Of a stretch of 64,000 nucleotides of DNA, positions 8,504-31,404 are shown piece by piece. Every line of letters starts with the position of its first letter. Positions within the stretch are counted from its first letter, which is position 1. The DNA comes from an uncultured Eubacteriales bacterium (GTDB taxonomy: Bacteria > Acidobacteriota > Aminicenantia > Aminicenantales > Saccharicenantaceae): positions 10,254 to 74,253 of the forward strand of contig CAZGJS010000013.1 in assembly GCA_964525875.1 (NCBI GenBank), in the 5' to 3' direction. The notes under the pieces were generated by a model. That model worked only from the letters and a program-made list of their open reading frames with translations, searched no databases and was not told the origin of the DNA. A program made the translations under genes and the position numbers.

Positions 8504-8516
8504 ATCACCCCTCCTA

Positions 8517-8996: not shown

Positions 8997-9543
8997 CGTT
9001 CTCCAGCAAAGCTTTGATTTTCCGGCGGGCGTTGAAAAGATAGACACGAGCCGTAGAAGCGGAGCATTCGAGGACCTCGGAGATGTCCCGGGCCGAATAG
9101 CCCTCGTTGGCCCAGAGGCAGAGGGCCGTCCGTTCGCGCGGCGAGAGCCTGGTCAAGAGGGCCGAAGGCAATGGTTTAGGGTCGGCGGGGTGGGGATTTC
9201 CCCCCCGTTCGGCGACGGCCGGCTCGAACCGGGCCCGGGCCGAAAACTCGGAAAAGCGCCGTTTCTTCTTGATCATGTCGAGCGACCTCCTGTAGACGAT
9301 GGTCAGAAGCCAGATCCTGAAATTCCTCATCGGGTCGTAGCGATCGAGATGACGGAAGACCTGGAGGAAGGTCTCCTGGCAGACGTCCTCGGCGTCCTGC
9401 CTGTTGCCGACGACGTTGAGGGCCACGGACATGACCAGGTTCCCGTAAGCCTCGACCATCGCCCGGCTGGAAACGGGGCTCCCCCGCAAACAGCCTTCGA
9501 TGATCTCTTTCTCTTCCACGGCGGGTCTCTTCTGTTCGTCCAT
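8971..9543 (-). CDS. RNA polymerase ECF-type sigma-70 factor
   Basis: Sigma70 region 2 (DAEDVCQETFLQVFRHLDRYD) and region 4 HTH (LSPRERTALCLWANEGYSARDISEVL). Confidence 0.8.
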   Translation of the reverse strand: MDEQKRPAVEEKEIIEGCLRGSPVSSRAMVEAYGNLVMSVALNVVGNRQDAEDVCQETFLQVFRHLDRYDPMRNFRIWLLTIVYRRSLDMIKKKRRFSEFSARARFEPAVAERGGNPHPADPKPLPSALLTRLSPRERTALCLWANEGYSARDISEVLECSASTARVYLFNARRKIKALLENDHGLLQNG

Positions 9544-16764: not shown

Positions 16765-17718
16765 ATGTCCGAAAAGAATATCCTCGAAATCTTCCGGGGA
16801 GCCACTAAGAATCTCTGCAACAGCGTCCTCAACCAGGTGCAGGACGCTGTCGTCTGGCTGGACAAGGACAGGAAGGTCGTCTACTGGAACAAGGCGGCCG
16901 AGCAGATGTCGGGGATCGAAGGCGCTCATATCCTGGGGAGGGCCTGCTTCGAGGAGCCGGCCCTGTTCGTGGATTTCGGCGGCGTCAACGTCTGCCGGGA
17001 CAAGTGTCCCGTCGCCATGACCCTCAAGGACGGCGCGCCGCGAGCGCTCGACATCTATCTCCAGCACAAAAAAGGGTTCCGCATGCCGGCGTCCCTTAGG
17101 ATCATCCCTGTGCTCAAGGAGGACGGCGAGATCATCGGGGCCGTCGAAATGTTCACCAGCACCTCGCCGAAGGTCACCCTGCCCCTCAACCTGGCGGAGC
17201 TCGAGAAAATGGGCCTCGTCGAGACCGAGACGGGCATCCCCTCCAAGCCGTACCTGGACATGACGCTGAACACCCGCTTGGAGGAATTTCAAAAGTACGG
17301 CCTGCCGTTCGGGCTGATCTACGTCGACCTCGACAATTACGGCAAGATCCTCGAGAAGTACGGCCGTTTCAACGCCAGCAAGATCGTCCGGACCGTCGCC
17401 CGGACCCTGCACAAGAACATCCGCTTTTTCGACATCGTCGGCCGCTGGGACACCGAGGAATTCCTGGTCGTCCTCCTCAACATCGACGACAGCCGGCTGG
17501 ACATCGTCGCCAACAAGCTCCGCCTCCTCATCGCCGAATCCTACATCACGACCGAGACGGGGATGCTCAACGCCACGGTGTCCATGGGCGCCAGCATCGT
17601 CCTCCGCTACGACACGGTCGAATCCCTCATCAAGCGCGGCGAACAGCTCATGATGCACAGCAAGTGGCTGGGCAAGAACCGCGTCAGCATGAGCTTCATC
17701 CAGAAAGAGATGAACTGA
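16765..17718 (+). CDS. PAS-domain protein with degenerate GGDEF domain (GRWDTEEF; probably catalytically inactive)
   Basis: PAS N-terminus; GGDEF-fold C-terminus with active-site motif replaced by RWDTEEF; lower GC than flanks. Confidence 0.6.
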   Translation: MSEKNILEIFRGATKNLCNSVLNQVQDAVVWLDKDRKVVYWNKAAEQMSGIEGAHILGRACFEEPALFVDFGGVNVCRDKCPVAMTLKDGAPRALDIYLQHKKGFRMPASLRIIPVLKEDGEIIGAVEMFTSTSPKVTLPLNLAELEKMGLVETETGIPSKPYLDMTLNTRLEEFQKYGLPFGLIYVDLDNYGKILEKYGRFNASKIVRTVARTLHKNIRFFDIVGRWDTEEFLVVLLNIDDSRLDIVANKLRLLIAESYITTETGMLNATVSMGASIVLRYDTVESLIKRGEQLMMHSKWLGKNRVSMSFIQKEMN

Positions 17719-17775
17719 ACAGAGGCCCCCTTCTCCGGGGGGGTGCGGAAAAGGGGGCGAAGACAGAAAGGAGGG

Positions 17776-18675
17776 TTAGAAAGAGGCCGGATTTTTGGCC
17801 TTGATATCGTTCGCTTCGGCGGCGAAAAGGATCTCGTTGTTCTCACCGGTCAGGCTGAGCCGCAGGCCGGTGCCCTGGAAAACCCACTCCGCGGTCAGAC
17901 GCAGACATCCCGTCGAAAGGGCCGTCCCCCAGCCCTCATTCCGTTCGGCGTAAGCCCTATCCTCCCGCCAGACGACGTTGTTGGTGCGCGGCTCGCCGAC
18001 TTTCTCGATGAGGAAATCCCTGATCTTGTTGTAATCGGCGACATAGCGGTCCTTATCCGCGTACTTTTCGAGGAGATGGAGGCGGACGGCGACGAGCTTC
18101 TCGTCGTTGAGGACGTAGGCGAGAAGGCACTTCTTTCCCAGGAGGTCGCGGTGATAGCTCAGGAACTCGAGGCCCCCGGAAACTTCGCGGGCGAGCGGAC
18201 GGCCTTCTGCTCGAAGGATGCCCGCCTTTGTCCTCCCCCACTCCACCATGGGCATGGACTCGCCCGTCAGGTCGATCTCCTTCGGGTCGACGATCTCTTC
18301 CTGCCCGGGGGTCAAGTTGACGACCCTGAGAGTGGAGTTGAGCTTGCGGACGAACCCATCCAGGACGTAGCCGCAGAGCGTCCGGCCCGAACGCGACGAG
18401 ACGAAGAGGATGTAGAACCAGTTGGTCCGGAACTTGATCGCGCTCGACAGCCTCACGACCGCGCCCCGGGACAGGGTCTCGACGACCGGACTGCGGCCGT
18501 CTGGCTCGAGATGGACGGCGGCCTTCTCGGCCGTGACCTCGAGCCGGACGATGGTCTCGGCGCGGGCCGGCCCGGGGGGGAACGAGACGCCGAAAAGGAG
18601 CAAGAAGGCGACGGCCGCGGACCGGGCCGCGAGGCCGGCACGGCCGCTTTCCCCGTGGTTCCTGGGCATTCTCAT
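17776..18675 (-). CDS. secreted hypothetical protein with N-terminal SH3b-like domain
   Basis: ATG 18675 (MRMPRNHG...signal peptide ending PARA); SH3b-like IVRLEVTAEKAAVHLEPDGRSPVVETLSRGAVVRL...WFYI...GYVLDGFV; last gene of the second sigma/anti-sigma operon. Confidence 0.45.
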   Translation of the reverse strand: MRMPRNHGESGRAGLAARSAAVAFLLLFGVSFPPGPARAETIVRLEVTAEKAAVHLEPDGRSPVVETLSRGAVVRLSSAIKFRTNWFYILFVSSRSGRTLCGYVLDGFVRKLNSTLRVVNLTPGQEEIVDPKEIDLTGESMPMVEWGRTKAGILRAEGRPLAREVSGGLEFLSYHRDLLGKKCLLAYVLNDEKLVAVRLHLLEKYADKDRYVADYNKIRDFLIEKVGEPRTNNVVWREDRAYAERNEGWGTALSTGCLRLTAEWVFQGTGLRLSLTGENNEILFAAEANDIKAKNPASF

Positions 18676-18780
18676 GGCAATCCCATCTTTCCGCACGCAT
18701 ACTATCGGATGGGACGATGGGGCTCACAATCCCCGCCGGAGATGATTCCGAGGGGGATATTCCTCACCCCGGGAGGGGGC

Positions 18781-19779
18781 TCATTTCAGCTGGAACCTGA
18801 CCGTCACCGTGAAAACGACGGGTCGGGGCCGCCCGTTGATGACCATGGGCTCATAGACCCACTGCCGGACGGCGTCGATGGCCGCCTGGTCTAGAAGCGG
18901 GATCGACCGCAGGACCTTCACGCCGATGACCCGCCCGTAGACGTCGGTCGTCGCTTCGACGATGACGATGCCCTCCACCCGGGCCTGGCGGGCGATCTCC
19001 GGGTAGAGCGGGTCGACCGACCTGACCAGCTTGGGCGGCTTGACGTCGCCGATGGCCCTCACGGGCGCTTCCACTTCGCCGACGACACCGCCCAGGACGC
19101 CGCCCACGACACCACCCAAGACGCCACCGACCACCCCGCCCTCGACGCCGCCCTCGACGCCGCCTTCGACGCCGATGTCCGAGAGCGTTTCCTCGGCGAT
19201 CTGCTCGGGGATCTCGATGGGCGCGACGAGTTTCCCCGCATCGACAGGCGCCGCGGCCTGGACACGCTTGATCCGCGCGCTCGCCGCCGGGCTCTTCCTC
19301 TTGGCCGGTGGCGGGGGGGGAGGCGGCGGGGGCGGAGGCGGAGCAAGAAAGGCGCTGTAGACCTCGACCGTCGGCAGCTCCCCCGTTCTCATCAGGGGAA
19401 GGACGATGAGCAGCAGGAGGATGGCCGCATGGGCCACCAGGGACAGCGGGAAGACAGCCGCCCGCACGCGCGTCACGCTTTCCGGGCGATAGAAGGAGTC
19501 CTTGAACATCTCGACCTCCGCAACACGGGATGCGGGGGCTCCGGCCTGCCGCCGGTCGATCCCGGCCCGGACGCGACCGGAAAAAGAGGCCCAGTATTCC
19601 GCTTCGCGGGGAACGGAGGGAGGCGTTTTGGGAAGTTGGTCGAGGTCCCGGATGAATTCGAGGTCCCTCCGGCACGAGGAACAGGCCTTGAGATGCTTCT
19701 CGACCCGCGAGCGGTCGGCCGCCCGGAGTTCGCCGTCGGCATAGGCCCCGATGAGTTCCTGGAATTTTCGGTGTCTCAT
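18781..19779 (-). CDS. anti-sigma factor (zf-HC2) fused to proline-rich linker, (GGV)n repeats and TonB C-terminal domain
   Basis: HLKACSSCRR (HxxxCxxC), TM helix VAHAAILLLLIVLPL, P12 run, GGVEGGVEGGV...repeats, C-terminal PPKLVRSVDPLYPEIARQARVEGIVIVEATTDVYGRV...LRSIPLLDQAAIDAVRQWVYEP (TonB_C); ATGA overlap with sigma gene. Confidence 0.75.
   Translation of the reverse strand: MRHRKFQELIGAYADGELRAADRSRVEKHLKACSSCRRDLEFIRDLDQLPKTPPSVPREAEYWASFSGRVRAGIDRRQAGAPASRVAEVEMFKDSFYRPESVTRVRAAVFPLSLVAHAAILLLLIVLPLMRTGELPTVEVYSAFLAPPPPPPPPPPPPAKRKSPAASARIKRVQAAAPVDAGKLVAPIEIPEQIAEETLSDIGVEGGVEGGVEGGVVGGVLGGVVGGVLGGVVGEVEAPVRAIGDVKPPKLVRSVDPLYPEIARQARVEGIVIVEATTDVYGRVIGVKVLRSIPLLDQAAIDAVRQWVYEPMVINGRPRPVVFTVTVRFQLK
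19110..19200. repeat. coding tandem repeat (12-nt unit gacgccgccctc and variants) encoding (GGV[EVL])n linker
   Basis: Direct nucleotide repeats within anti-sigma::TonB_C gene, GGVEGGVEGGVEGGVVGGVLGGVVGGVLGGVV. Confidence 0.6.
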
Positions 19780-19780
19780 C

Positions 19781-20371
19781 TCAAGCTCCCCTCGCCAGGG
19801 AATCCGTCAGGAGGCCTTTCAGCTTCTGTCGGGCCCGATTGAGCCGGGACATGACGGTGCCGATCGGCAGGTCGAGGGTCCGGGAGATCTCCTCGTAGCT
19901 CATGCTCTCTTGGAACCTCAGGACGAAGACGCTTCTCTGGTCGGCCGCGAGCGACGCCACCGCCCGTTCGAATCGGACCTCGAATTCGGCGCGCTCCAGC
20001 CGCTCCTCGGGACCGTCGGCCGGCGCGGAGAAAGGCGTCCTCCGCGCTCCCAGGGTCCCTTCGAGGAGCGGCCGCTCCCGCTTCCGGGCCTTGAGGTAAT
20101 TGAGCCCTGAGTTGAGGGCGATCCGCCGGAGCCAGGGGTAAATGGGCCATTGCACGTCGAACCGGTCCAGGGCGTAATAGGCCTTGATGAAGGTCTCCTG
20201 GGCCAGGTCGTCGGCCGACTGGTGGGCGCCGGTCAGGCGCCGGCAGAGGGCGTAGACCCTCTGCTGGTACTTCCGGACCAGGCTCTCGAAGGCGTCCATG
20301 TCTCCCTGCTGGGCTTTCCGGACGAGGACGGCATCCTCCGGATGCTCGGGCGGCCTCGTCGGAGCTCCCAT
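19781..20371 (-). CDS. RNA polymerase ECF-type sigma-70 factor
   Basis: Region 2 (DDLAQETFIKAYYALDRFD) and region 4 (MSYEEISRTLDLPIGTVMSRLNRAR). Confidence 0.8.
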   Translation of the reverse strand: MGAPTRPPEHPEDAVLVRKAQQGDMDAFESLVRKYQQRVYALCRRLTGAHQSADDLAQETFIKAYYALDRFDVQWPIYPWLRRIALNSGLNYLKARKRERPLLEGTLGARRTPFSAPADGPEERLERAEFEVRFERAVASLAADQRSVFVLRFQESMSYEEISRTLDLPIGTVMSRLNRARQKLKGLLTDSLARGA

Positions 20372-20481
20372 AGGTCATACACCTCGCGGCGGAAGTTATT
20401 CCTCATTTCCATGATACGCCTTTTTGAGCCGCGAATGAACTCGACCGTGGAGGGACTTGACAGCAGGGCCTGATTCTTGTA

Positions 20482-20517
20482 TTTCTACTGTTCCTATAGT
20501 ACCTATAGTACCTATAG
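20482..20517. repeat. tandem 9-bp repeat (CCTATAGTA)x3 + degenerate 4th copy in sigma/mtrA-like intergenic region
   Basis: cctatagta cctatagta cctatagta tctatatgc at 20482-20517; low-GC spacer 65-100 nt upstream of the decaheme gene ATG. Confidence 0.8.
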
Positions 20518-20583
20518 TATCTATATGCTCAGTTCTCTTCATTCATGCGACTGTAGATTGGGGAATTTGGAAAGGAGGATTAC

Positions 20584-21501
20584 ATGAAAGGTCATCGCAA
20601 GACCACGCCCCCTGCTCTCGCTGTCCTCATGACTTTCCTGGCTCTGATCGGCCTGGTCCTTCTGGTTATGCCCGAGAAGGTCGCGGCCCGTCAGGACGGG
20701 CAATATGCGGGCATCGAGCAGTGCGCGGCGTGCCACGAGGAAACTGTCGCCCAGTTCCGCGAATCGATCCACGGGAAAAAGGGGTTCGAGATGCGCTCGA
20801 GCCACTCCTGTGAAACCTGCCACGGGGCCGGCAAGGCCCACGTGGACGCGGGCGGAGGCAAGGGCTCCATGACGACGATCAAGGGGCTCTCCAAGGAAAA
20901 ACAAACGGAGATGTGCCTGCAGTGCCATGACCGCGGGAACAAGACCGACTGGCAAGGGAGTCTCCACGAGACCCGTGGGCTTTCCTGCCAGGATTGTCAC
21001 TCGGTCCACAGCCCCGGCACCGACAAGGCTCAGCTCAAGGCGTCCGAAACGGATCTGTGCTTCACCTGCCATAAGCAGAAGCAGGCGCAGTTCTTCCGGG
21101 CATCCCACCACCCGGTCCGGGAAGGTAAGATGGCATGCTCCGACTGCCACAATCCCCACGCCGTCCAGGAAGGCAAGCTCGTCGACCAAGCGGCCGTGGC
21201 AGAGACCTGTTATCAGTGCCACGCCGAAAAGCGCGGGCCCTTCCTCTGGGAGCACATCCCCGTTCGGGAGGATTGCATGACCTGCCACGAAGCCCACGGG
21301 TCCAACCACATGAAGATGCTCAAGGTGAAGGAGCCCTTCCTTTGCCAGCGCTGCCATTCCGACACTCGGCACCCCGGCACGCTCTACGACCAGACCCAGC
21401 GGAACAACGACAGCAATCGCCTGTACGGCCGCTCCTGCACCAACTGCCATTCGACGGTCCACGGTTCGAACCATCCTTCGGGCAGGACCTACCTGAGGTG
21501 A
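20584..21501 (+). CDS. periplasmic decaheme c-type cytochrome, MtrA/DmsE/PioA family-like
   Basis: 305 aa, signal peptide, exactly ten CxxCH (CAACH CETCH CLQCH CQDCH CFTCH CSDCH CYQCH CMTCH CQRCH CTNCH); RBS AAAGGAGGA. Confidence 0.8.
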   Translation: MKGHRKTTPPALAVLMTFLALIGLVLLVMPEKVAARQDGQYAGIEQCAACHEETVAQFRESIHGKKGFEMRSSHSCETCHGAGKAHVDAGGGKGSMTTIKGLSKEKQTEMCLQCHDRGNKTDWQGSLHETRGLSCQDCHSVHSPGTDKAQLKASETDLCFTCHKQKQAQFFRASHHPVREGKMACSDCHNPHAVQEGKLVDQAAVAETCYQCHAEKRGPFLWEHIPVREDCMTCHEAHGSNHMKMLKVKEPFLCQRCHSDTRHPGTLYDQTQRNNDSNRLYGRSCTNCHSTVHGSNHPSGRTYLR

Positions 21502-21514
21502 CGAGGAGTTCCCA

Positions 21515-23728
21515 ATGAAAAAAACAATCCTATCCATTGCACTTGTGGGTCTCGTCCTCGACCTGTTCTCGGGTTCCGCCTGGGCCCAGGACAAGAAGGG
21601 CGAGGAACTCGTCTTCAAGGGGGCCGCTACGGCCGGCGTCCAGGCCGTCAAGGAGATCGAAAGGTCCTCCAAGTTCACCGAATACCGCGACGTCCCTCGG
21701 GGCTTTTTTCTGCAGTCACTGACTCTGGACCTGACGAAGGGAAGCCGTTATTTCTATCTCTCCGTGATGAATGTTCAGCAGGCCGACGAGCGGATCACGG
21801 CCAGCGTCGGTGACTACGGCAAATTCGCGCTCGATCTGGGCTACGATAGCATCCCCCACCGGTTCAGCTTCGACGGCGCCACATCGTACGTCGAAAAAAC
21901 CCCGGGCGTCTTCACCCTGAACGACGTCATCCGGTCCGCCGCAGAGGCCCTCGTCCCCACGGGGACAAGCACCAATATCGCCGCCGCACGGGCCCTCGTC
22001 TCGAGCTTCCTGACAAGCGCCGCCCCTATCGACCTGGGACTTCTGCGGAAAAAGGCGACCCTCGATTTCGCCTACACGCCGTCCGTTCCCTTCAGCTTCA
22101 ACGTCGCGGGAAGCTACGAAACACGGAGTGGGAACCGGCCCTACGGCACCCCCCTCGGATTCAGCAACGCGATCGAACTCCCCGAACCGATCCATTACAA
22201 GACGACCAACATGGACACGAGCCTCGAGTACCACAAGGGTTGGGGAACAGTCCGGGCGGGTTTCGCTGCGTCCCTGTTCGACAACGACGTCCAGACCCTG
22301 ACCTGGGACAATCCCTATCGGATCACCGACTCGACCTATGCCACGGCCTACAGCGCGGGCAACGGGACCGCTCACGGCCAGATGGCCCTCTGGCCCTCCA
22401 ACGACGCCGTAAGGTTTTATCTCAGCGGGTCCTTCAAACCGCTGAAGACCACGCGGATTTCGGCGGCCGCGTCCTACGGCACCTTCAGCCAGAACCAGAA
22501 ACTCCTGCCCTTCACGGTCAACACCGCCATCCCGGGCTCCGACCCGACGGCCGTCAACGCCCTCTCCGCGCCCCGTGAATCGGCCAAGGCCAAGGCGAAC
22601 ATCACCTCGCTCGACCTCACCTTGAACTCCCGGCTCATGAAGTCCGTTTATCTCGCGGCCGGATTCCGGTACTACGACTTCGCCAACAAGATCGAAGAGC
22701 TCGATATTCCCAACGGGTATGCCCGGCTGGATCAGGTCTGGGAAAACATCCCCATCGCCGTCGAACCCTATTCCTTCGCCCGTTCGCGGCTGTTCGGCGA
22801 CCTGACCTTCAACGTCCTCAAGAACACGTCCCTCAAGGTCGGTTACTCCCTCTATAGCGTCCGCCGGCACGAGGGCACCCACGAGACGGAAAAGAACAAG
22901 TCGGACGAGGGCACCTTCAAGGTCTCCGTCGATAGCAATCCGTTGGACTGGTTGATGCTCCGCGTCACCTACCTCAACTCCAAGCGGGACTGGTCCCTCG
23001 ACGACACCTGGTACGCCTACATCCCGAGCTTCAACTTCAAGCGTTATTTCGAGGCCAGCCGGGACCGGCAGTCCATCAACGCGCTCGTCGGCCTGACCCC
23101 GATCGACAACCTGGATATCCAGCTGACCTACTCGATCGGGCGTGACGATTACCCGAAGTCCGAATACGGGCTGACGCGGGACGACTTCGACATGTACGGC
23201 ATCGACCTCAGCTACGCCTTCGCCAAGAACCAGACGCTCTACGGTTTTTACACCCGCGAGATCTATGACGCCGACCAGGCCTCGCGTCAGAGCGGCGCGA
23301 CCTTTTCGGTGAACCCGTTGGACGATTGGACGGCGAACCTGAAGGACACCGTCGACACCTTCGGGGCCGGACAGACGATCGAGCTCCTCGCGGACAAGCT
23401 CAACTTCGACCTCTCAGCCTCGTATTCCAAGGCTGCCGGCTCTTCGTTCCTCTTCTCCCCGGCCGGCGGGACCCCGAACACCGCCCTCAACTTCACCGAC
23501 CCCCTCGACTCGACCACCTGGTGGACGATCCAGTCCTCCTTCAAGTGGAAGATGATGAAGAACCTCCTCGTCGTCCTTGGCTACTGGTACGAGCAGTATA
23601 ACCTCAAGGACATCGTCCGGAACGAAATCGCCGTGGATTACGCGGCCGCCGGCGCCATCTTTCTCGGCGCCCGGGAGCCCGGCTACAAGTATCACGTCGG
23701 CTCCGTGAAGTTCATCTACAGCTGGTAA
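21515..23728 (+). CDS. outer-membrane beta-barrel, decaheme-associated MtrB/PioB family-like
   Basis: 737 aa, signal peptide MKKTILSIALVGLVLDLFSGSAWA, C-terminal ...KFIYSW aromatic terminus, alternating amphipathic beta-strand pattern; 14 nt downstream of decaheme gene. Confidence 0.7.
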   Translation: MKKTILSIALVGLVLDLFSGSAWAQDKKGEELVFKGAATAGVQAVKEIERSSKFTEYRDVPRGFFLQSLTLDLTKGSRYFYLSVMNVQQADERITASVGDYGKFALDLGYDSIPHRFSFDGATSYVEKTPGVFTLNDVIRSAAEALVPTGTSTNIAAARALVSSFLTSAAPIDLGLLRKKATLDFAYTPSVPFSFNVAGSYETRSGNRPYGTPLGFSNAIELPEPIHYKTTNMDTSLEYHKGWGTVRAGFAASLFDNDVQTLTWDNPYRITDSTYATAYSAGNGTAHGQMALWPSNDAVRFYLSGSFKPLKTTRISAAASYGTFSQNQKLLPFTVNTAIPGSDPTAVNALSAPRESAKAKANITSLDLTLNSRLMKSVYLAAGFRYYDFANKIEELDIPNGYARLDQVWENIPIAVEPYSFARSRLFGDLTFNVLKNTSLKVGYSLYSVRRHEGTHETEKNKSDEGTFKVSVDSNPLDWLMLRVTYLNSKRDWSLDDTWYAYIPSFNFKRYFEASRDRQSINALVGLTPIDNLDIQLTYSIGRDDYPKSEYGLTRDDFDMYGIDLSYAFAKNQTLYGFYTREIYDADQASRQSGATFSVNPLDDWTANLKDTVDTFGAGQTIELLADKLNFDLSASYSKAAGSSFLFSPAGGTPNTALNFTDPLDSTTWWTIQSSFKWKMMKNLLVVLGYWYEQYNLKDIVRNEIAVDYAAAGAIFLGAREPGYKYHVGSVKFIYSW

Positions 23729-23732
23729 AACG

Positions 23733-23781
23733 CCCGGGCCGGGAGGGGGACGCTCTCCCCTTCCCGGCCCGGATTCTCTTT
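23733..23781. terminator. bidirectional rho-independent terminator between convergent operons
   Basis: Hairpin cccgggccgggaggggga-cgctc-tccccttcccggcccgg followed by ATTCTCTTT on + strand and preceded by AAAA (TTTT on - strand). Confidence 0.6.
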
Positions 23782-23867
23782 ACGTCTCTCCCCCCTCCCT
23801 CAGGACCTCTCGATGCCCTGGTCGATTGAGGGGCATTTCTCCCCGGGGAGACGGTTCAAAGGGAGTG

Positions 23868-24683
23868 TCAGGGCGCCGGGACGGCTTGGCGAGCAGGCTC
23901 TGTCCCCCCGGCTTCGAGGGCCTTTTGCCTCTCGGCCAGGATCTTCCGGTATTCCAGGGCGTGAAGAGTCTTCAGCTCGTGCCCGCTGATCTTGCCGTTG
24001 ATCCATATCTTGCTCATCGGGAAGACTTCGGGGTTGAGGTGGACGTTGTACATGTGCCAGATGATGATCGCCAGGAAGGCCAGCATGGCCTCGTAGCCGT
24101 GGGCGATGACGAAAATATCGTGGACCCAGAGAGGGAAGATGCTGAGCGACAGATCCACGTTCCACATGAAGAAGCCGGAGATGATCATGATGAACGACCC
24201 CCAGGCCACGGAGAGATATTCGAGCTTCTCGACAAAATTATAGCGACCGTACTCCGGCGGATTCTCGAACCTCCAGAAGGGATGGCGGTCGAAAAACTTC
24301 CGAAGGATCCCCTTCCGGTAGAGCCAGCGCGATAAGCCGACGTTGTACCCGAAAAGGGCCACGGCGTCGAGGCCGTCCTTCGGATGCGGGATCATCTCCT
24401 TGAAGTTGTCCCGGCCCCTCCGGGTCAGGATGGTGTAGCCGGAGTGCCAGACCATATCGACGATCAGGACGATCGCCGCGACGCGGTGCAAGACCCCGCG
24501 ATAGGTGAACGCCTTCTCGATGCTGAAGATGGACTTGAAGATGCGCAGCTCGTAGAACATCAGGGGCAGCCCCGTCACGACGAGGAGCGAGAAAGAAACG
24601 ATGAGGAGGACGTGCTGGACCCTCTCGGCCGGGTTCATCCGGAGAAAAACTTCGTCGTCGCGGATGAGCGTCTTTCCGGTCAT
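23868..24683 (-). CDS. di-heme membrane cytochrome b (FdnI/HydC/cytochrome b561-like quinone-interacting subunit)
   Basis: ATG 24683 (MTGKTL...) in ATGA overlap with upstream gene; 5 TM helices with conserved His (HVLLIV, HRVAAIV, HGYEAM, WHMYNVH). Confidence 0.6.
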   Translation of the reverse strand: MTGKTLIRDDEVFLRMNPAERVQHVLLIVSFSLLVVTGLPLMFYELRIFKSIFSIEKAFTYRGVLHRVAAIVLIVDMVWHSGYTILTRRGRDNFKEMIPHPKDGLDAVALFGYNVGLSRWLYRKGILRKFFDRHPFWRFENPPEYGRYNFVEKLEYLSVAWGSFIMIISGFFMWNVDLSLSIFPLWVHDIFVIAHGYEAMLAFLAIIIWHMYNVHLNPEVFPMSKIWINGKISGHELKTLHALEYRKILAERQKALEAGGTEPARQAVPAP

Positions 24684-25918
24684 CTTTTCCATCGGATCCT
24701 CATGCGGCGATAAAGGTCGGCGGCGATGAAGGCCAGGAACACGAAGATCAATCCGCCGATGACGACCATGTAGACGATCTTGACGGTATAGGCCCAGCGG
24801 TTCTCGGTTTTCTCCGAGATGACGTGGATGCGGCCCTTGGAGAAGTTGTCGCCGGCGCCCGGATGGCAGGTCCCGCATGTTGCGGCCATGTTGGCCGGGT
24901 TGATGGACGAGAGGGGGTCGGAGGACGGCCGGATGCCGTGGTGCCCGTGGCAGCTCGAGCAGTTGGCGACCTTGACTTCGCCGAACTTCGAAGCCGTGCC
25001 GTGGTAGGACGCGGAGAAGGTCTTAAGCCGGGACGTCAGAAGGCCATACTGTCTGGCCAGGGTCTCGTCGTCGTGGCAGCGGGTGCAGACGGCGGCCACC
25101 TTCGTGGCGTAAACGCCCGAGCCGAGGTCCTCGGGGGAGCGGATGTCGTGCTCGCTGTGGCAGTCCGTGCAGACGGGGACGCCCTGGACGCCCTTGACAT
25201 AGTCTTTGCCGTGAACGCCCTCGAGATAATCCCGCTCAATGCCGGTATGGCACGTCCCGCAAGTTCGAATGATGTTCTGGCGCGAGACTTTGGACCGAGG
25301 GTCGTCGACCGTACGGACCGAGTGGCCGCCGTGGCAGCTGAGGCAGGTCGCGGAAAGACTCAGGCCCGCCTTGGACAGGGCCCGGAAATGAGCGCTGTCC
25401 TTATAGCCGCCGACGAATCCCGCCACCCGCTTGGCCTTGACGCGCTCGAGATGGCAGGTCAGGCAGGTGTCGGGGATGTTCATCGGGGAGGTGTGCGACT
25501 GGGCGTCTTTGGCGGGACGGATATCGTGAGTGCCGTGGCAATCCTTGCATTGGACGGTGATGGGCGAGTCCCCGTCATGCTGACGGCCATGGATGCTGTC
25601 GCGGATCGCGGTGGCTGCCTCCTCGTGGCAGGACGCGCAATCGACCGGCTTGAGCTTCGCGGCGTGAGGGAAATCCGTGAACTTTTTGAGGTCGGCGTGA
25701 CAGTCGACGCAGGCGATCCCGGCCGAGCCGTGGATCGAAGCGGTGAAACTAGCGCCGTCCACGAAAAGGGAGCGGCCCTGCTCCGTTTTCAACCCGGAGT
25801 CCCCATGGCAGGTCAGACAGTCGTCGTCGGATTGTCCGGCGAGGGCCGGCGCGGCGGTCCAGAGAACGACCAGCGCCGCCGGGAGGGCAAGCCGCAGGAA
25901 CGCGCCGCGGAGCTTCAT
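24680..25918 (-). CDS. undecaheme c-type cytochrome with C-terminal TM anchor
   Basis: ATG 25918 (MKLRGAFL signal peptide); 11 CxxCH; C-terminal TM VKIVYMVVIGGLIFVFLAFIAADL. Confidence 0.75.
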   Translation of the reverse strand: MKLRGAFLRLALPAALVVLWTAAPALAGQSDDDCLTCHGDSGLKTEQGRSLFVDGASFTASIHGSAGIACVDCHADLKKFTDFPHAAKLKPVDCASCHEEAATAIRDSIHGRQHDGDSPITVQCKDCHGTHDIRPAKDAQSHTSPMNIPDTCLTCHLERVKAKRVAGFVGGYKDSAHFRALSKAGLSLSATCLSCHGGHSVRTVDDPRSKVSRQNIIRTCGTCHTGIERDYLEGVHGKDYVKGVQGVPVCTDCHSEHDIRSPEDLGSGVYATKVAAVCTRCHDDETLARQYGLLTSRLKTFSASYHGTASKFGEVKVANCSSCHGHHGIRPSSDPLSSINPANMAATCGTCHPGAGDNFSKGRIHVISEKTENRWAYTVKIVYMVVIGGLIFVFLAFIAADLYRRMRIRWKR

Positions 25919-25956
25919 CGGGTCTTGAATCCTCGCCTCCGGCGGCGGAAGCGGAC

Positions 25957-26475
25957 TTACTTCCCCGGGACGGGGTGCTTGATCTTTTCCCAGAAGGAGG
26001 CGAAGTCGAAGCTGATGCCGTGGGGATTCTCGTGACACTTCAGGCACTGGGCTTTGATGGCGTCGGGGCTGCCGTAGAGGATCAGTCCGTTCTTCACGGA
26101 CTCAGCCTTGTCCTTCATCACGCTGAGCTTCTTGTACTCGCTGCCGGGGCCGTGGCAGACCTCGCAAGATACGCCATCGGACTTGAGGTCGGGGGCTTTG
26201 GCGGCGAGCGGAGAGTGGCACTTCAGACAGCGCGGGTCGTCCGCCGGCTTGTCCACGCCCATGGCCTGACAAGCCTCGGCCGCCTTGGACGAGGTCAGGG
26301 CTTCCAAGGACTTGGAATGCTTGGAGCTTTCCCAGATCACATACTGCCGTCCCTGGTTCTCCGACTTATGGCAAATCTGGCATTTCTGGGCGCCGACGTA
26401 GGCGAATTCCTGGCCGATGGCCGGGACGGCCAGAATGAGCAGACCCAAGGCTGACAGCGCAAGCTTGTTTTTCAT
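25957..26475 (-). CDS. tetraheme c-type cytochrome (cytochrome c554-like), secreted
   Basis: Signal peptide; CQICH, CLKCH, CEVCH, CLKCH. Confidence 0.75.
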   Translation of the reverse strand: MKNKLALSALGLLILAVPAIGQEFAYVGAQKCQICHKSENQGRQYVIWESSKHSKSLEALTSSKAAEACQAMGVDKPADDPRCLKCHSPLAAKAPDLKSDGVSCEVCHGPGSEYKKLSVMKDKAESVKNGLILYGSPDAIKAQCLKCHENPHGISFDFASFWEKIKHPVPGK

Positions 26476-26574
26476 GGTCACTTCCTATAACTCATATAAG
26501 GTCTATCGGATAAATATTGTATTAAACCGGCGGTGAATTGTCAACGCGAATGGACAGAATTGCTTGCCGGGCTC

Positions 26575-27843
26575 TTACGGCCGGGAACCGCCGCGGCCTT
26601 CTCCCTCTCGCCGGGCACGCGCCATGCGCCTGATTTTCAGGGCAAGGGCGGCCGCGAAGACGGCCAGGAGAACGGTGGTCACGGCCAAGCCCCGCCGCCG
26701 GAAGCGGGCCTCGTCCAGAGCCTTCTCGCCGGCGGTGCGGACCCCGGCGAGCGCCGCTTCTCCTTCGGCGACGGTCTTGGCGATCTCGGCCGTATCGAGA
26801 CCGTGGGTCAAGTTCTTGGCGGTGACGAGGACGGTCGTCACGTCCAAGAGCTTGAATTCCGCATCGCTGACTTCGACGCCCTTCTGCTTGGCCCGCGCCA
26901 AGAGGCCCTCGGCGGCCTGGAAACCGGACTCGAAGCGGTCGAGCGTCCGGCGGAGCTCGGCCGCCGCCTCGAACCCCCGCGACCCTTTTTCGTGGCACTG
27001 GACGCACACGGCACGATCGTCGGTCCCGATCATCGCCGTGGAGGGGGTAAGGATCTTGTGGTTTCCGTGGCAGGCTTCGCACTCGCTCGCCCCGAGCTCG
27101 TCGAAGGCCTTTTTATGGGGGCTCTTGGTGAAGAGCTCGCCCGTCGAGGGATGGCACTGGCGGCAGACCGAGGCCACCGACGTGACGGATGGCGGATAGG
27201 CGCCGTGGTTTCCGTGGCAGTCATTGCAGACGGGAGCGGAAAGGTCCTTCTTGTCATAGAGGGCCTTGGCGTGGACGCTGGCTTTGTAGTCGTCCAACTG
27301 GTCCGTCGGGATCCTATAGCCCTCCATGAAGGCCTTGTCGGCGTGGCAGCGGCCGCAAGTCTGGGGGATATTCCACGGAAAAGTCGGGGATTTGGGGAAC
27401 CTGGCCGATTGGATGCCATGGACACCGTGGCAGTCGGTGCAGACGGCCGCTTTCGTATCCCCGGATTTCAGGAGCTGCCCGTGGCGGCTGGTTCCATATT
27501 GACTGAGCTGGTCCGTGCGCAGGGCGGGATTGTAGGCCCGCATGGCCGCGGCGTCGGAGTGGCACCCTCCACAGAACTGGGGGATTTGGCTCCGTTTGGG
27601 CGATCCCTTGAACGATTTGTCCTTGGCCAGGTCGACGTCGTCCTTGTCCGGATTCCCTCCGTGACAGTCCTTGCAGCTCAGCCCGTACTCGGCGTGGACA
27701 TCGGCAGCGAAAGAGGCGGCCGGGACCTTGAGCTCGTCGTCGAGCTGGTTATGACACTCGATACAGCTGTTTTTCTGCCCGAAGGCTAGGAGCGGCGCAA
27801 AAAGCGCCGCCACGGTAAGAAAGCGGATCGCACGGATTTTCAT
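26575..27843 (-). CDS. nonaheme c-type cytochrome with C-terminal TM anchor
   Basis: Signal peptide MKIRAIRFLTVAALFAPLLAFG; 9 CxxCH; C-terminal helix LAVTTVLLAVFAAALAL. Confidence 0.75.
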   Translation of the reverse strand: MKIRAIRFLTVAALFAPLLAFGQKNSCIECHNQLDDELKVPAASFAADVHAEYGLSCKDCHGGNPDKDDVDLAKDKSFKGSPKRSQIPQFCGGCHSDAAAMRAYNPALRTDQLSQYGTSRHGQLLKSGDTKAAVCTDCHGVHGIQSARFPKSPTFPWNIPQTCGRCHADKAFMEGYRIPTDQLDDYKASVHAKALYDKKDLSAPVCNDCHGNHGAYPPSVTSVASVCRQCHPSTGELFTKSPHKKAFDELGASECEACHGNHKILTPSTAMIGTDDRAVCVQCHEKGSRGFEAAAELRRTLDRFESGFQAAEGLLARAKQKGVEVSDAEFKLLDVTTVLVTAKNLTHGLDTAEIAKTVAEGEAALAGVRTAGEKALDEARFRRRGLAVTTVLLAVFAAALALKIRRMARARREGEGRGGSRP

Positions 27844-27855
27844 ATTATCGTCTCG

Positions 27856-28932
27856 TCAGAGTTTCGGCAACGCATAGGTCAGGACCGTCATGACCGCGAT
27901 GTAGGCGGCCAGGACCAGACCGATCCAGGTGAAAGGGGGGCTTCGCTTCTCGCGGCCGGCGCGCCGGTCCAGGAAGGGTATCAGCATCCAGAGCAGGCCC
28001 CCGGCCATGAAGCCCAATATGGCCAGCCTCTCCCCTTCGATGGACAGGATGTGCGCGGGGACGATCTTGAGGGTCGTGAACATGAAGGTAAAATACCACT
28101 CCGGTTTGATGCCGAGCGGGGTCGCGGCCAGCGGGTCGGCTTTCGTTCCGATCTCCCATGGTAAAAATACGCACAGGACGCCGATGAGGACGAGCATCAG
28201 GGTCCAGCCGAGTGCATCCTTGTACAGGAAGTCGGGAAAGAAGGGGATTTCCTTCGTCCCGCGCTCGCCGACGGGCTTGCTCATGCCCAGGGTTTGGACG
28301 AGGAGGATGTGGATGCCGATGAGGATCAGCGCGGCCAGGGGCAGCAGGGCGACGTGGAACCAGAAGAAACGGGAAAGGGTCGCCTGGGAGACCTCGGGCC
28401 CTCCCAAGATGAACGTTTTGAGCCAATTGCCTATGAACGGGAGGCTCCCGGCGATGTCTGTCCCGACGCGGGTCGCGAAATAGGACAGCTCGTTCCAGGG
28501 GAGGAGGTAGCCGCTGAACCCGAAGGCCATGAAGAGGACTAACAGGAGGAAGCCGGTCACCCACGTCAGTTCCCGGGGTTTACGGTAGGCCTTGAGGAAG
28601 AATGTCGAGAACATGTGGACGAAGAGGAGGCCGATGAGGATGTTGGCCGTCCAGCTGTGGACGGAGCGGATGAGCCAGCCGAACTTGACCCCGCTCATGA
28701 TGAACTGGATGCTTTCGTGGGCGGCGTCGATGTGGGGAGTATAGTAAAGAAGGAGCATGGCGCCCGTCGCGACCTGGATCCCGGTCAGGAACAGGCAGAT
28801 CCCGCCGAAGAAATACCAGAATGAATGGCGGTGTTCGGGAACGGTCTTTTTCTTTCCAAAGGCGATGAGCCCTGAAAGCAGGAAGCGTTCGTCCAGGAAT
28901 TTCCAGACGCTCTGCCCGATTTTCTTGGCCAT
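27856..28932 (-). CDS. cytochrome b of a Rieske/cyt b (bc-type) complex
   Basis: ATG 28932 (MAKKIGQSVWKFL); 8+ TM helices, heme-ligand His pairs, Qo-site PEWY motif (IKPEWYF). Confidence 0.8.
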   Translation of the reverse strand: MAKKIGQSVWKFLDERFLLSGLIAFGKKKTVPEHRHSFWYFFGGICLFLTGIQVATGAMLLLYYTPHIDAAHESIQFIMSGVKFGWLIRSVHSWTANILIGLLFVHMFSTFFLKAYRKPRELTWVTGFLLLVLFMAFGFSGYLLPWNELSYFATRVGTDIAGSLPFIGNWLKTFILGGPEVSQATLSRFFWFHVALLPLAALILIGIHILLVQTLGMSKPVGERGTKEIPFFPDFLYKDALGWTLMLVLIGVLCVFLPWEIGTKADPLAATPLGIKPEWYFTFMFTTLKIVPAHILSIEGERLAILGFMAGGLLWMLIPFLDRRAGREKRSPPFTWIGLVLAAYIAVMTVLTYALPKL

Positions 28933-28933
28933 G

Positions 28934-29359
28934 TCAGCTTTTCCTGGAGACGATGATGTCGGGGCCGGAAACCTCGACGGCGTAGGTTTCGAGCGGTCTC
29001 GGCGGCGGCCCGGACAGGACGTTCCCGCTGAGGTCGAAACGGCCGTTGTGACAGGGGCAGAAGAGGGTCCCTGTTTCGCCGTCATAGCGGACCGTGCATG
29101 TCAAGTGGGTACAGATAGCCGAGAGGGCGACCAGGGTCCCCTCCGCCGTGTTGATCAAGACGGCCGGCGCCGAACCGAACTTGAAGATCTTGGCCGCGTT
29201 GGGGGGAAGCTCGCCGGCCTTGGCCGCCGCGACGCTGTTCTGGACGGCGCCGGTCCTCTTGGACGGGAGGACGTAGCGAACGACCGGATAGACGAAGGCG
29301 GCGATCGTGGCCAGAAGGCTTCCGCCGAAGAAGATGTCGAGGAAACTGCGGCGTTTCAC
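28934..29359 (-). CDS. Rieske [2Fe-2S] iron-sulfur protein
   Basis: N-terminal TM anchor; CTHLTC ... CPCHNG cluster-binding boxes; ATGA overlap with upstream gene. Confidence 0.85.
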   Translation of the reverse strand: MKRRSFLDIFFGGSLLATIAAFVYPVVRYVLPSKRTGAVQNSVAAAKAGELPPNAAKIFKFGSAPAVLINTAEGTLVALSAICTHLTCTVRYDGETGTLFCPCHNGRFDLSGNVLSGPPPRPLETYAVEVSGPDIIVSRKS

Positions 29360-31404
29360 TTTTTCTCTTCTTTTCCGCTGCCCAACGATTTTATTGTTCC
29401 CAATATTTTTGTCAAGTAGTCGTCGATAAAAAGATAGTTGTGGATGCCCGAACTCCCGTCGAGGTCGATCGTCCGCAACGCCTCCTCGATCTTCTGGACC
29501 ACGGCTTTTTCGGGGTCCGTCAAAGGGCTTTTATAGAGGGCGTGGAGGGCGGACCGGGCTTCGTCGGCGCGGCTCCGGACGCCGTCCCGCCACTCGGTGA
29601 ACGTCGCCCGGTATTTCTCGTCGTGGCAGGCGACGCAGGCGCCGCCGTCGGGCCGGACGACCTTCTTGGCTTTATCCACGTGGCAATCCGGGCAGGACGC
29701 CCCGGCCTCGGCCATCATGTCCTTCGGGACCTTGACCTCCCCGAGCGCCCCTCCCTCGTAAAACGTTTTCTGGAGGGCATGGCACTCGCCGCAGCTTTTC
29801 TTGGCCTCCTGATGATGGCAGGTTGCGCAGGACGCCTTGGTGGCCGTCAGCTCGCCATGGCGGCGGACGTTCGAATGGCACGTCGCACACTCCAGCTTCT
29901 GCCCGACAGCATGTTTGCGGTGGGAAAACTGGAGGCCGAACACGGGGCGGCTGATCTCCTCGATCCCGGCGTGGCAGGTCAGGCAGGCGTTCGGCGTTTC
30001 GCGGTTCAAGAGGGTCGTCGCCTCCGGCCGGTAGGTGGAGCCCGCGGCGGCCAGGGCTTCGCGGATTTTTTCAAGCGACGCGGTCAAGAGCTCCTGGGAA
30101 TAGGCCATGTTATGGACGCTCTTGCCCTTTTCCACGATGTCGATATTGAACCGGGCTTCATCGAGGAGGGCCGTGGGCTCTTTCTTTTTCGGCCCGGCCG
30201 CCGATCGGACGGCCACGGCCGCCCGCGCCGAAATCGCCTTGATCTCCGCCAGCCTCTTCTCGGTCGCGCTCTCCCAATTCTTTAAGATCCGGTCGAAGCC
30301 GCGGCCATGGCACGACTCGCAGGCCGCGCCGCTCGCCGTGAGCGTATCGCCCTTGTCCAGCCGGCCGCTCGCCTCATGGAACATGTGGCAGCCCTGGCAG
30401 CTAAGCCCTTTCTCCAGCATGACGTTGGGCATGGCGTGCGGGATCCCTTTTCCGCCCTGACCCGTGTAAAGGATTTTCTGGGCGCTGTGGGTCCCTTGGT
30501 GGCAGGCCTGGCAGTCGGCGATCGTCTCGATGTCCTTGACGATCTTGTGTTCGATTTCGCGGTGGCACTGCTCGCACTCGATCTTGTTGGCCGTGATGTG
30601 GGTCCGGTGCATAAGTTCCGTATCGTTGTACTTCTCCAGCCGGTCCCTCTCGAAATGGCACTTGTCGCAGTTTTCCTTCGGCACCTCGCCGTCGCCGGAC
30701 ACGATACGGCTGTGGCACTTGTCGCAGCTGTAGCCGTTGTCGAAGACGGGCATGTGGTCGAAACGCTCCTTGACGGCGAGAAGCTCGTCCTTGCGGTGGC
30801 AGACGGCGCATTCCCCTGTCCGGACCTCGGGCGCCTTGTCCTTGAAATGGCAGAGGAAACAGGACGCCGGCGTGACGGTGATGTGTTCGCCTTGCACGAT
30901 CTGGGAGTGGCAGCTCGTGCAGCGCAGGGTCTTGCCCCGTTTGAGGTCGTCGAAGTGGGCCTTGTGGTCGAAGGCGACCTTGCCGAACTCGACCTTGCCC
31001 TCGAGAAGCCTCCGGTCGTGACAGCCGGGACGGAGGCAGCTCTCGTCCTGGATTTCCGCCCAGGGCTTGGATTTCACGTAGAGGCGCGTCCAGTAGCGGC
31101 CGACCATGACCAGGCCCTCGATTTTCGTCCGGAAGAACGATTTCATGCCCGGCGGATAATGGCAGACCTTGCACTGGACGTCTTTGTGGGAGGAGGTCTT
31201 CCAGCTCTCGAAAAAGGGCTTCATGTAATGGCAGGACGAACAGAAACGTGACGTCGAGGTCACCTCGATGGAAACGACGAACAGCAGGATGACGGCCGCC
31301 GGCAGGCCGAAGAGGAGGAGACGGCGTTTCCTGCGTTTCGGCTTCTGCGGCAGGGCTTCCGAGCCCAGCACCGCGGCCGGGTCCCGAGGGCCGTCCTCAG
31401 GCAT
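29356..31404 (-). CDS. membrane-anchored multiheme (17 CxxCH) cytochrome with NapC/NirT/NrfH-type N-terminal quinol-dehydrogenase module
   Basis: ATG 31404; TM LLLFGLPAAVILLFVV then FCSSCHYMKPFFESWKTSSH (NapC/NirT signature); 17 CxxCH plus one possible CX4CH (CLRPGCH). Confidence 0.7.
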   Translation of the reverse strand: MPEDGPRDPAAVLGSEALPQKPKRRKRRLLLFGLPAAVILLFVVSIEVTSTSRFCSSCHYMKPFFESWKTSSHKDVQCKVCHYPPGMKSFFRTKIEGLVMVGRYWTRLYVKSKPWAEIQDESCLRPGCHDRRLLEGKVEFGKVAFDHKAHFDDLKRGKTLRCTSCHSQIVQGEHITVTPASCFLCHFKDKAPEVRTGECAVCHRKDELLAVKERFDHMPVFDNGYSCDKCHSRIVSGDGEVPKENCDKCHFERDRLEKYNDTELMHRTHITANKIECEQCHREIEHKIVKDIETIADCQACHQGTHSAQKILYTGQGGKGIPHAMPNVMLEKGLSCQGCHMFHEASGRLDKGDTLTASGAACESCHGRGFDRILKNWESATEKRLAEIKAISARAAVAVRSAAGPKKKEPTALLDEARFNIDIVEKGKSVHNMAYSQELLTASLEKIREALAAAGSTYRPEATTLLNRETPNACLTCHAGIEEISRPVFGLQFSHRKHAVGQKLECATCHSNVRRHGELTATKASCATCHHQEAKKSCGECHALQKTFYEGGALGEVKVPKDMMAEAGASCPDCHVDKAKKVVRPDGGACVACHDEKYRATFTEWRDGVRSRADEARSALHALYKSPLTDPEKAVVQKIEEALRTIDLDGSSGIHNYLFIDDYLTKILGTIKSLGSGKEEKK

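Follow-up and report, generated by a model that had tools for sequence, protein, structure and literature searches.

We analyzed a 64,000-nucleotide stretch of DNA from an uncultured bacterium of the Aminicenantia (phylum Acidobacteriota; assembly GCA_964525875.1, contig CAZGJS010000013.1, positions 10,254 to 74,253), hereafter the window. Our focus is a two-gene locus on the minus strand that encodes an extracytoplasmic function (ECF) sigma factor and a membrane-spanning anti-sigma factor fused to TonB. The fusion joins a predicted zinc-binding anti-sigma domain to all the parts of a TonB protein, its architecture is conserved across Aminicenantes, and a single promoter motif marks two classes of genes, the sigma operon and stand-alone tonB. 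The features of the locus are as follows.

19781-20371, minus strand: ECF (group 4) sigma factor gene, RpoE/AlgU/SigW-like, 196 aa (Pfam, NCBIfam and Protein Data Bank (PDB) matches)
18781-19779, minus strand: anti-sigma::TonB fusion, whole gene, 332 aa (zf-HC2 and TonB_C; orthologs in Aminicenantes)
19525-19779, minus strand: predicted cytoplasmic class-I zinc-binding anti-sigma domain, aa 1 to ~85, ligands H3/H29/C33/C36 (zf-HC2 and RsiW-like profile match)
19390-19509, minus strand: TonB-type N-terminus, MFKDSFY (M91), and transmembrane (TM) helix FPLSLVAHAAILLLLIVLPLM with P111 and S113-x3-H117 (alignment to stand-alone TonBs)
19306-19341, minus strand: Pro12 run, aa 147-158, TonB-type proline-rich periplasmic spacer (read from the translation)
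19078-19173, minus strand: (GGV)n segment, aa 203-234 (translation; ortholog identity)
18784-19059, minus strand: TonB C-terminal domain, aa 241-332, YP motif LYPEIA (Pfam, phmmer, AlphaFold2 (AF2) and Foldseek)
20377-20402, minus strand: ECF-type promoter GGAATA-N15-TGTAT of the sigma/anti-sigma operon (conserved upstream of the sigma gene)

A sigma factor gene and an anti-sigma::TonB fusion gene

The two open reading frames (ORFs) have exactly the coordinates given in a preliminary description of this DNA, which had proposed an ECF sigma factor next to an anti-sigma factor, and domain searches confirmed the sigma factor. It matched Sigma70_r2 (E = 1.4e-16) and Sigma70_r4_2 (E = 5e-16) in Pfam, with region 3 absent, and scored 105.6 bits against the sigma70-ECF model TIGR02937 (cut-off 42.9). 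Because its score against the RpoE equivalog model TIGR02939 was 133.4 bits, under the cut-off of 236, we classify it by sequence as RpoE-like and not as an RpoE ortholog. PDB matches were AlgU (6in7, 7e-30), RpoE (1or7, 8e-28), and SigW (5wuq_A, 3e-27). A single nucleotide separates the sigma stop codon from the ATG of the anti-sigma gene, and this gap, together with the adjacency of the genes, supports the prediction that the anti-sigma domain would bind and inhibit the sigma factor.

The zf-HC2 motif, single TM helix, Pro12 run, GGV repeats, and TonB_C domain that the preliminary description attributed to the anti-sigma factor were all recovered. The translation contains HLKACSSCRR, one TM helix (~aa 107-130), Pro12, and 7 GG[V/I/L] repeats; Pfam placed zf-HC2 at aa 4-37 (E = 5e-12, 46 bits vs a cut-off of 22.2) and TonB_C at aa 257-331 (E = 9e-18, profile positions 3-79 of 79), and neither Pfam nor NCBIfam gave a FecR-family match in the fusion. 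When a profile of orthologous anti-sigma domains was compared with PDB, RsiW (5wuq_C, 4.5e-5) ranked first, followed by DdvA, ChrR, and RslA, while the match to the RsrA model TIGR03988 was weak (E = 3e-5) and far under its cut-off. Helices predicted by AF2 at aa 2-48 formed a helical bundle with predicted local distance difference test (pLDDT) values of 74-88; the whole fusion was modeled only poorly (pLDDT 47) from an alignment of 3 sequences. The H-x3-C-x2-C motif and the additional N-terminal His ligand identify the N-terminus as a putative class I anti-sigma domain of the zinc-binding anti-sigma (ZAS) subtype.

The preliminary description had staked its reading on a TonB_C fold at the C-terminus, and structure prediction upheld this. 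An AF2 model of the domain, built with a 30-sequence alignment, reached a pLDDT of 94.2, and its top 17 Foldseek matches in PDB were all TonB-family C-terminal domains. The best was 6i97_D (TM-score 0.75/0.80, root-mean-square deviation 1.7 Å), with 1u07, 2gsk_B, and 2grx_C among the others, and the matches included complexes of TonB with FoxA, BtuB, FhuA, and TbpA. A phmmer search of PDB with the same domain returned TonB2 (2k9k, 3e-8) and matched TonB structures as well. As modeled, the C-terminus of the fusion is an alpha/beta TonB domain of ~90 aa and not an outer-membrane beta-barrel.

TonB_C alone, however, understates what the anti-sigma factor carries. In an exhaustive profile search, stand-alone TonBs of ~245 aa aligned from their own residue 1 to positions 91-332 of the fusion profile. 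These proteins start with MFKD or MFQD, which aligns with M91-F-K-D of the fusion, and continue with a TM helix bearing (S/A)-x3-H, a spacer rich in Pro, a segment rich in Gly, and finally TonB_C; the FPLSLVAH motif of the fusion aligns within their TM helix. The S-x3-H motif of the TonB signal anchor corresponds to S16/H20 in Escherichia coli. Because the stand-alone proteins align end-to-end, from Met1 to M91 onward, aa 91-332 of the fusion constitute a complete TonB, with the S-x3-H signal-anchor helix, the Pro-rich spacer, and the TonB_C fold with its YP motif that are traits of the family, and aa 1 to ~85 as an added cytoplasmic domain. Other arrangements in the same TonB_C subfamily were seen in a representative search, namely an ExbD-like domain with TonB_C (P0183), a trypsin-like peptidase with TonB_C (P0184), and a full TonB with a ~170-aa cytoplasmic N-terminal extension to which no family was assigned (P0258).

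The window also encodes a stand-alone TonB, preceded by a copy of the promoter motif.

58847-59566, minus strand: stand-alone TonB paralog, 239 aa, starts MFQDALF, predicted regulon member (TonB_C, E = 3e-20)
59615-59640, minus strand: second exact GGAATA-N15-TGTAT, promoter of the stand-alone tonB paralog (motif scan)

Public gene calls hold an identical 239-aa product. This paralog shares ~54% identity overall with the TonB part of the fusion and 81.5% in the C-terminal domain. Docking of the C-terminal domain of the fusion onto TonB-box proteins is plausible because the modeled domain matches TonB_C folds, several of them bound to TonB boxes, and because it is 81.5% identical to the corresponding domain of the organism's own stand-alone TonB.

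Conservation in Aminicenantes and two promoter classes

A scan with one genome per species found ~53 species-level loci that encode the whole anti-sigma domain and the TM region, at 39-90% identity. Nearly all belong to Aminicenantes, Ca. Aminicenans sakinawicola among them, and in every locus the sigma gene lies directly upstream of the fusion gene. The H3, H29, C33, and C36 ligands (H-x3-C-x2-C and the N-terminal His) are invariant across all orthologs, and among the orthologs long enough to include the TM helix only L058 departs from P-x-S-x3-H, with A-x3-H; the His is always kept. Complete fusion ORFs are 326-342 aa long and contain the Pro run, ~7 GGV repeats, and TonB_C, the exceptions being the frameshifted L005 and L023, and most orthologs retain a run of 12 Pro. 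Since 36 complete orthologous ORFs within this size range (326-342 aa) show the same architecture, the fusion is not an artefact of assembly or frameshifting.

Conservation is uneven along the protein. Among the 36 orthologs, mean pairwise identity was 96.8% in the GGV region (aa 201-240), 88% in aa 132-160, which follow the TM helix and include the Pro run, and 85% in TonB_C, vs 59% in the anti-sigma domain. This pattern points to stronger constraint on the periplasmic TonB part, as expected if binding of a partner matters. The GGV segment is the most conserved part of the fusion, above both the anti-sigma domain and the TM helix, and the stand-alone TonB is only 45% identical to it there, which suggests a specific structural or partner role for the segment.

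About 20 of the retrieved fusion loci end within the poly-Pro/GGV/TonB_C DNA (L003-L006, L019, L022, L027-L036, and others), and frameshifts in the poly-C run occur in P0125, P0128, L005, and L023. Public orthologs P0121-P0134 are among the affected copies, and a search with the N-terminal part only gave mostly truncated or frameshifted orthologs. Truncated copies represent contig ends or frameshifts inside poly-Pro/GGV DNA, and because copies stop or shift frame there, the gene is systematically truncated or split in annotations of metagenome-assembled genomes (MAGs), and its fragments are labeled 'zf-HC2 domain-containing protein, partial' or 'energy transducer TonB'. This is probably an annotation trap, in which many damaged public copies appear only as a 'zf-HC2 protein' or as an 'energy transducer TonB'.

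The unclassified MAGs L072 (9713-11011) and L078 encode a different anti-sigma factor of 386-432 aa, which combines zf-HC2 (E = 8e-10) with a TonB_C that is divergent but scores above the cut-off (34.5 bits). It has neither the S-x3-H helix nor the Pro run, its sigma factor is ~45% identical to that of the window, and GGAAT-N17-GGTAG lies upstream of the sigma gene. These proteins may have originated independently or be a degenerate form of the fusion. Because this lineage combines zf-HC2 and TonB_C without the TonB-type helix, the broad two-domain architecture is not unique.

The motif GGAATA-N15-TGTAT occurs at fixed spacing before the sigma gene in 51 loci, the distant clade included, and is the sole element upstream of the sigma gene that is conserved in both the close and the distant clades; its end lies 4-5 nt upstream of the start codon. 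In the window the -10 element ends 5 nt ahead of the sigma ATG, so the transcript of the sigma operon may be leaderless. The layout is that of RpoE/SigW-type ECF promoters; the SigW promoter, GAAAC-N16-CGTAT, is similar in style. In MAGs of Zixibacteriota, WOR-3, Cloacimonadota, and others, elements of a related kind are found before related sigma genes, and because the motif thereby tracks the sigma family across phyla, we take it as a signature of autoregulation, in which the ECF sigma factor would recognize the motif of its own operon and activate it.

Other elements surround this promoter. Just upstream of the ECF -35, at 20411-20420 on the minus strand and at equivalent close-clade positions, a conserved AAAAGGTGTATCATG-type element resembles a housekeeping extended -10, which suggests that a basal promoter overlies the autoregulated promoter. 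An AGGTG in the upstream block was considered as a ribosome-binding site (RBS) and set aside as the principal explanation of the block, given that the distant clade keeps only GGAATA and TGTAT; in the close clade, AGGTG in the ECF spacer may act as the RBS of a longer transcript from the upstream sigma70-like promoter. A simple scan of 17600-20700 for sigma70 promoters and terminators gave nothing significant.

Beyond the sigma operon, the motif leads to tonB. With up to one mismatch (≤1) it occurs at only 2 sites in the 64-kb window, against 0.13 expected, one before the sigma gene and the other before the stand-alone tonB. Each of the four further stand-alone TonB genes in the retrieved genome loci (L023, L032, L044, and L046) carries it, as do 49/52 non-redundant, independent metagenomic tonB loci of the same subfamily (45 exact and 4 with one mismatch), where the motif always starts 73-77 nt upstream of the ATG. 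A position weight matrix scan of 1.16 Mb of Aminicenantes DNA returned 57 sites upstream of tonB genes and 60 upstream of sigma genes, the latter comprising 53 assigned by automatic classification and 7 by position. The only other good site, in L055 (~position 1432, minus strand, 26.6 bits), is an exact GGAAT-N16-TGTAT; it precedes a gene for an uncharacterized 242-aa secreted protein, which may be an extra regulon member in that genome. The leader of tonB (59567-59614, minus strand) is itself conserved, and within it a perfect hairpin, GGAAGC-GAAA-GCTTCC (59592-59607, GNRA loop), stands before a strong AAGGAGG RBS. The same hairpin is found in L023, L032, and L044, and it may act post-transcriptionally.

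In the close clade the fusion gene is followed directly by a conserved gene for a 306-aa secreted protein (17776-18696, minus strand) with no Pfam family, SH3_3 giving only a faint match (E = 0.11). This gene carries a conserved sigma70-like promoter of its own, GATTGA-N17-GATA(G/C)T, with conserved inverted repeats upstream, and for this reason we regard the sigma/fusion operon as bicistronic; a hairpin often separates the fusion gene from the 306-aa gene. A GGAAT-N16-TGTGA-like element before the window copy of this gene was rejected as a regulon site, as it is not conserved and the gene has its own sigma70-like promoter.

A proposed TonB-mimicking anti-sigma factor and alternative explanations

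We propose, as a model that we consider about evenly poised between right and wrong, that a TonB-mimicking anti-sigma factor couples the status of the Ton system to the expression of tonB. Its anatomy is that of an anti-sigma ZAS domain grafted onto the N-terminus of a complete TonB paralog. Judging from its family, the ZAS domain would sequester the co-translated sigma factor at the inner membrane, and the S-x3-H helix would place the fusion in ExbB/ExbD as it does an ordinary TonB. The C-terminal domain could then sample the TonB boxes that the real TonB recognizes, through beta-strand addition of the kind seen in the solved complexes that it matches. A change in the status of the Ton system, hypothetically either the exposure of many TonB boxes (demand) or the loss of coupling to ExbBD or the proton motive force (PMF), might destabilize the fusion or expose it to regulated proteolysis, as happens to RsiW and FecR, and the freed sigma factor would increase the transcription of tonB as well as that of its own operon. 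The outcome would be signaling of the cell-surface type in which TonB itself is the anti-sigma factor and Ton capacity is the output. The account of what the protein is stands much firmer than the account of what releases the sigma factor.

Several points weigh against this model. Neither a releasing signal nor a protease site can be recognized in the sequence, which leaves release conjectural, the organisms are uncultured, and the analysis is wholly computational. A demand-sensing loop built on a competitor of TonB has no known precedent. That the motif is read by this sigma factor rather than by another ECF follows from the logic of autoregulation, and the near-invariant GGV segment is not accounted for by mimicry of TonB. 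Furthermore, no exbB, exbD, or TonB-dependent transporter gene was found among the scanned ORFs of the window, and an ExbD-like probe had no match in 1.55 Mb of collected DNA, which does not cover whole genomes.

A possible but doubtful form of signaling is a motor-coupled sensor, in which the TonB mimic, seated in ExbB/ExbD, would bind the TonB boxes of ligand-loaded transporters and report engagement, or the PMF behind it, straight across the inner membrane to the sigma factor, thus setting the level of TonB. If true, this would be cell-surface signaling by one polypeptide, without a dedicated transducer or a FecR-type regulator, and possibly a case of mechanical force controlling sigma release.

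The best-surviving alternative, which we judge unlikely, is that the fusion is a generic envelope-stress anti-sigma factor whose TonB-like half serves only as a periplasm-spanning tether or anchor (e.g., to peptidoglycan or the outer membrane) and whose sigma factor is freed upon envelope damage by regulated intramembrane proteolysis in the style of RsiW/RseA, with no involvement of ExbBD or TonB boxes. The closest relatives of both partners fit this explanation, AlgU/RpoE/SigW for the sigma factor and RsiW for the anti-sigma domain, and so do the wide use of TonB_C in secreted non-TonB proteins of the lineage, such as those with three TonB_C domains, and the combination of zf-HC2 with TonB_C in L072/L078 without a TonB-type TM helix. 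A mere tether, however, would not need the S-x3-H helix and the MFxD N-terminus that nearly every ortholog retains, and the sole recurrent target beyond the operon is tonB, not envelope-repair genes.

More improbable still is that the fusion is a cytoplasmic redox/thiol or zinc sensor, in which H-x3-C-x2-C would release the sigma factor upon oxidation or metal stress as in RsrA, and the TonB half would be an ordinary transducer, so that stress is coupled to the supply of TonB. The invariance of H3, H29, C33, and C36 in all orthologs, the abundance of redox proteins in the window, and the TIGR03988 match to RsrA are compatible with such a sensor, but that match is weak (E = 3e-5) and far under the cut-off, and the same ligands are found in the non-redox RsiW, ChrR, and RslA, which match better. 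Moreover, RsrA-type sensors are soluble, and this explanation leaves aside the fact that the periplasmic part is the most conserved.

Coupling of Ton-system status to tonB expression, the model that we favor, has partial parallels in known systems. In FecA-FecR-FecI of E. coli and Pseudomonas, an ECF sigma factor is likewise held by a single-pass inner-membrane regulator, and the signal depends on TonB-box exposure and the TonB-ExbBD motor (PMC12036975, PMC9249621), the same logic that we propose for the fusion; FecR releases its sigma factor through a cleavage cascade (PMC12036975). In contrast to that system, the fusion has no FecR domain, no transducer with a signaling domain lies nearby, and the sigma factor is RpoE/SigW-like and not FecI-like. 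TonB and the sigma regulator are joined in one polypeptide instead of acting among three proteins, and the predicted output is tonB instead of a transporter operon. On the basis of the scanned window ORFs, the pair does not appear to belong to FecR-type cell-surface signaling.

With RsiW-SigW and the class-I ZAS proteins ChrR, RslA, and DdvA, the fusion shares the N-terminal helical domain, the H-x3-C-x2-C zinc site, and one TM helix; RsiW is the best PDB match for the anti-sigma domain, and SigW is among the best for the sigma factor. The extracytoplasmic parts of RsiW, ChrR, RslA, and DdvA are unrelated to TonB, however, and have no S-x3-H, Pro spacer, or TonB_C. TonB1 and TonB10 of Bacteroides thetaiotaomicron carry a Peptidase_M56/BlaR1-like N-terminal domain on a TonB_C protein, and N-terminally extended TonB homologs had not been functionally characterized to the knowledge of the authors of that study (PMC10350073). 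They resemble the fusion in placing a signal-transduction-type module on a TonB_C protein, whereas the fusion has an anti-sigma domain and a co-transcribed sigma factor and thus a direct transcriptional output.

In the Dma anti-sigma factors of Bacteroidota, too, an anti-sigma domain is followed by a TM helix and a long tether, and the C-terminal module has its action at the outer membrane (PMC13088901). Their C-terminus is an integral outer-membrane beta-barrel, whereas that of the fusion is a soluble TonB domain of ~90 residues, predicted to bind outer-membrane proteins reversibly, and the two differ in phylum and ECF group. HasI/HasS of Serratia marcescens provides a dedicated TonB paralog under an ECF sigma factor, which controls a has operon that includes the TonB paralog gene hasB (PMC9249621). 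Unlike the fusion, HasB is output only, HasS is a separate anti-sigma factor of the FecR type, and signaling proceeds through the transducer HasR. Our literature search, including the ECF reclassification, found no description of a ZAS anti-sigma factor fused to a complete TonB.

TonB is normally viewed as an energy coupler only, and transcriptional signaling from the outer membrane is thought to require a specialized transducer and a FecR-type regulator. The conserved union of a complete TonB and an anti-sigma domain in one protein suggests that the load or energization of the Ton system could be read out directly. With two genes and two promoters, the system is compact and could be rebuilt in E. 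coli to study how engagement of TonB-ExbBD becomes a cytoplasmic signal.

The cytochrome neighborhood and a second ECF/TonB_C locus

Divergently adjoining the sigma/anti-sigma pair, as the preliminary description stated, are MtrAB-like genes, for a decahaem cytochrome of the DmsE/MtrA family (TIGR03508, 267.6 bits vs 192) and an MtrB/PioB porin (PF11854, 324 bits), both above curated cut-offs. This position had prompted the suggestion that the porin-cytochrome genes are regulated by the pair in response to outer-membrane or envelope status. The divergent arrangement around a shared intergenic region, 212 bp in the window, is repeated in L005, L006, L008, L021, L022, L025, L027, L031, L035, and L039, and every close-clade locus lies beside some cytochrome c cluster. 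In that clade the pair always has the cytochrome c gene cluster on one side and, on the other, a conserved block consisting of the 306-aa gene, PAS-GGDEF, HTH/M78, pyridine-nucleotide oxidoreductase, and rpoD. The identity of the cytochrome genes varies, however: among 35 informative close-clade species genomes, the genes immediately upstream are MtrA/MtrB in 8/35, a count that excludes the window and two metagenome contigs that are also MtrAB-adjacent, cytochrome b561-like in 12/35, a c554-type cytochrome in ~9, and ResB/Ccs in ~5, and in 1 genome MtrAB is 3 kb off in the other orientation. Neither MtrAB nor other cytochrome neighbors occur in any of the distant-clade genomes that keep the sigma/fusion pair (0/16).

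The promoters give a similar picture. In 8/10 MtrAB-adjacent loci mtrA has a TTGACA-type -35 with a TAT-rich -10 ~17 nt later. A search for ECF-type -35/-10 elements upstream of the mtrA-like gene, proposed earlier as a check, found no ECF-like motif with ≤2 mismatches on the mtrA strand in 9/10 of these loci, and the lone 2-mismatch match facing mtrA (L008) overlaps the TTGACA promoter of that locus. There is no third copy of the motif (≤1 mismatch) in the window, where it goes to tonB, and MtrB-type porins are not known to have a plug domain or a TonB box. Regulation of the MtrAB-like genes by the pair is therefore highly improbable: direct control of mtrAB by this sigma factor is not supported, indirect effects are possible, and the adjacency is best explained as inherited synteny with a variable cytochrome cassette. 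Gene adjacency alone would have misled toward control of extracellular-electron-transfer genes.

The mtrA side of the intergenic region has features of its own on the plus strand, with a perfect TTGACA -35 at 20457-20462 followed by three tandem 9-mers at 20493-20519 (CCTATAGTA on the plus strand, TACTATAGG on the minus strand); L005, L035, and L039 have two TATAGGAA repeats at the equivalent place. These repeats could represent a stack of -10 boxes or a site at which a regulator acts on mtrAB. Beyond it, positions 20584-33537 hold a dense set of genes of the extracellular-electron-transfer type, including MtrA- and MtrB-like proteins, cytochrome b561, multihaem cytochromes, cytochrome b, a c554-type cytochrome, and ResB. 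One multihaem cytochrome (29356-31479) has MtrC/MtrF-like domains. Such a set is notable for an Aminicenantes genome, and its content differs among relatives. A gene for an IstB-like IS21 helper ATPase (44188-45009, minus strand; E = 1e-70) marks a mobile element farther along the window.

A second link between an ECF sigma factor and TonB_C is found in three genes at 6848-9543 on the minus strand. They encode an ECF sigma factor (8971-9543), a single-TM protein of ~158 aa within the ORF at 8517-9047 that has an H-x3-C-x2-C-like HMERCPRC but matches nothing in Pfam, and a secreted protein of 588 aa (6848-8614) with three tandem TonB_C domains and GGV repeats between them, all on the same strand. 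The promoter of this locus gave no match to GGAATA-N15-TGTAT. The three-gene order recurs in L087, L088, and L089. Secreted proteins of ~550 aa with three TonB_C domains dominated a search with the full-length fusion, through its low-complexity and TonB_C parts, and their family is very abundant in Aminicenantes metagenomes.

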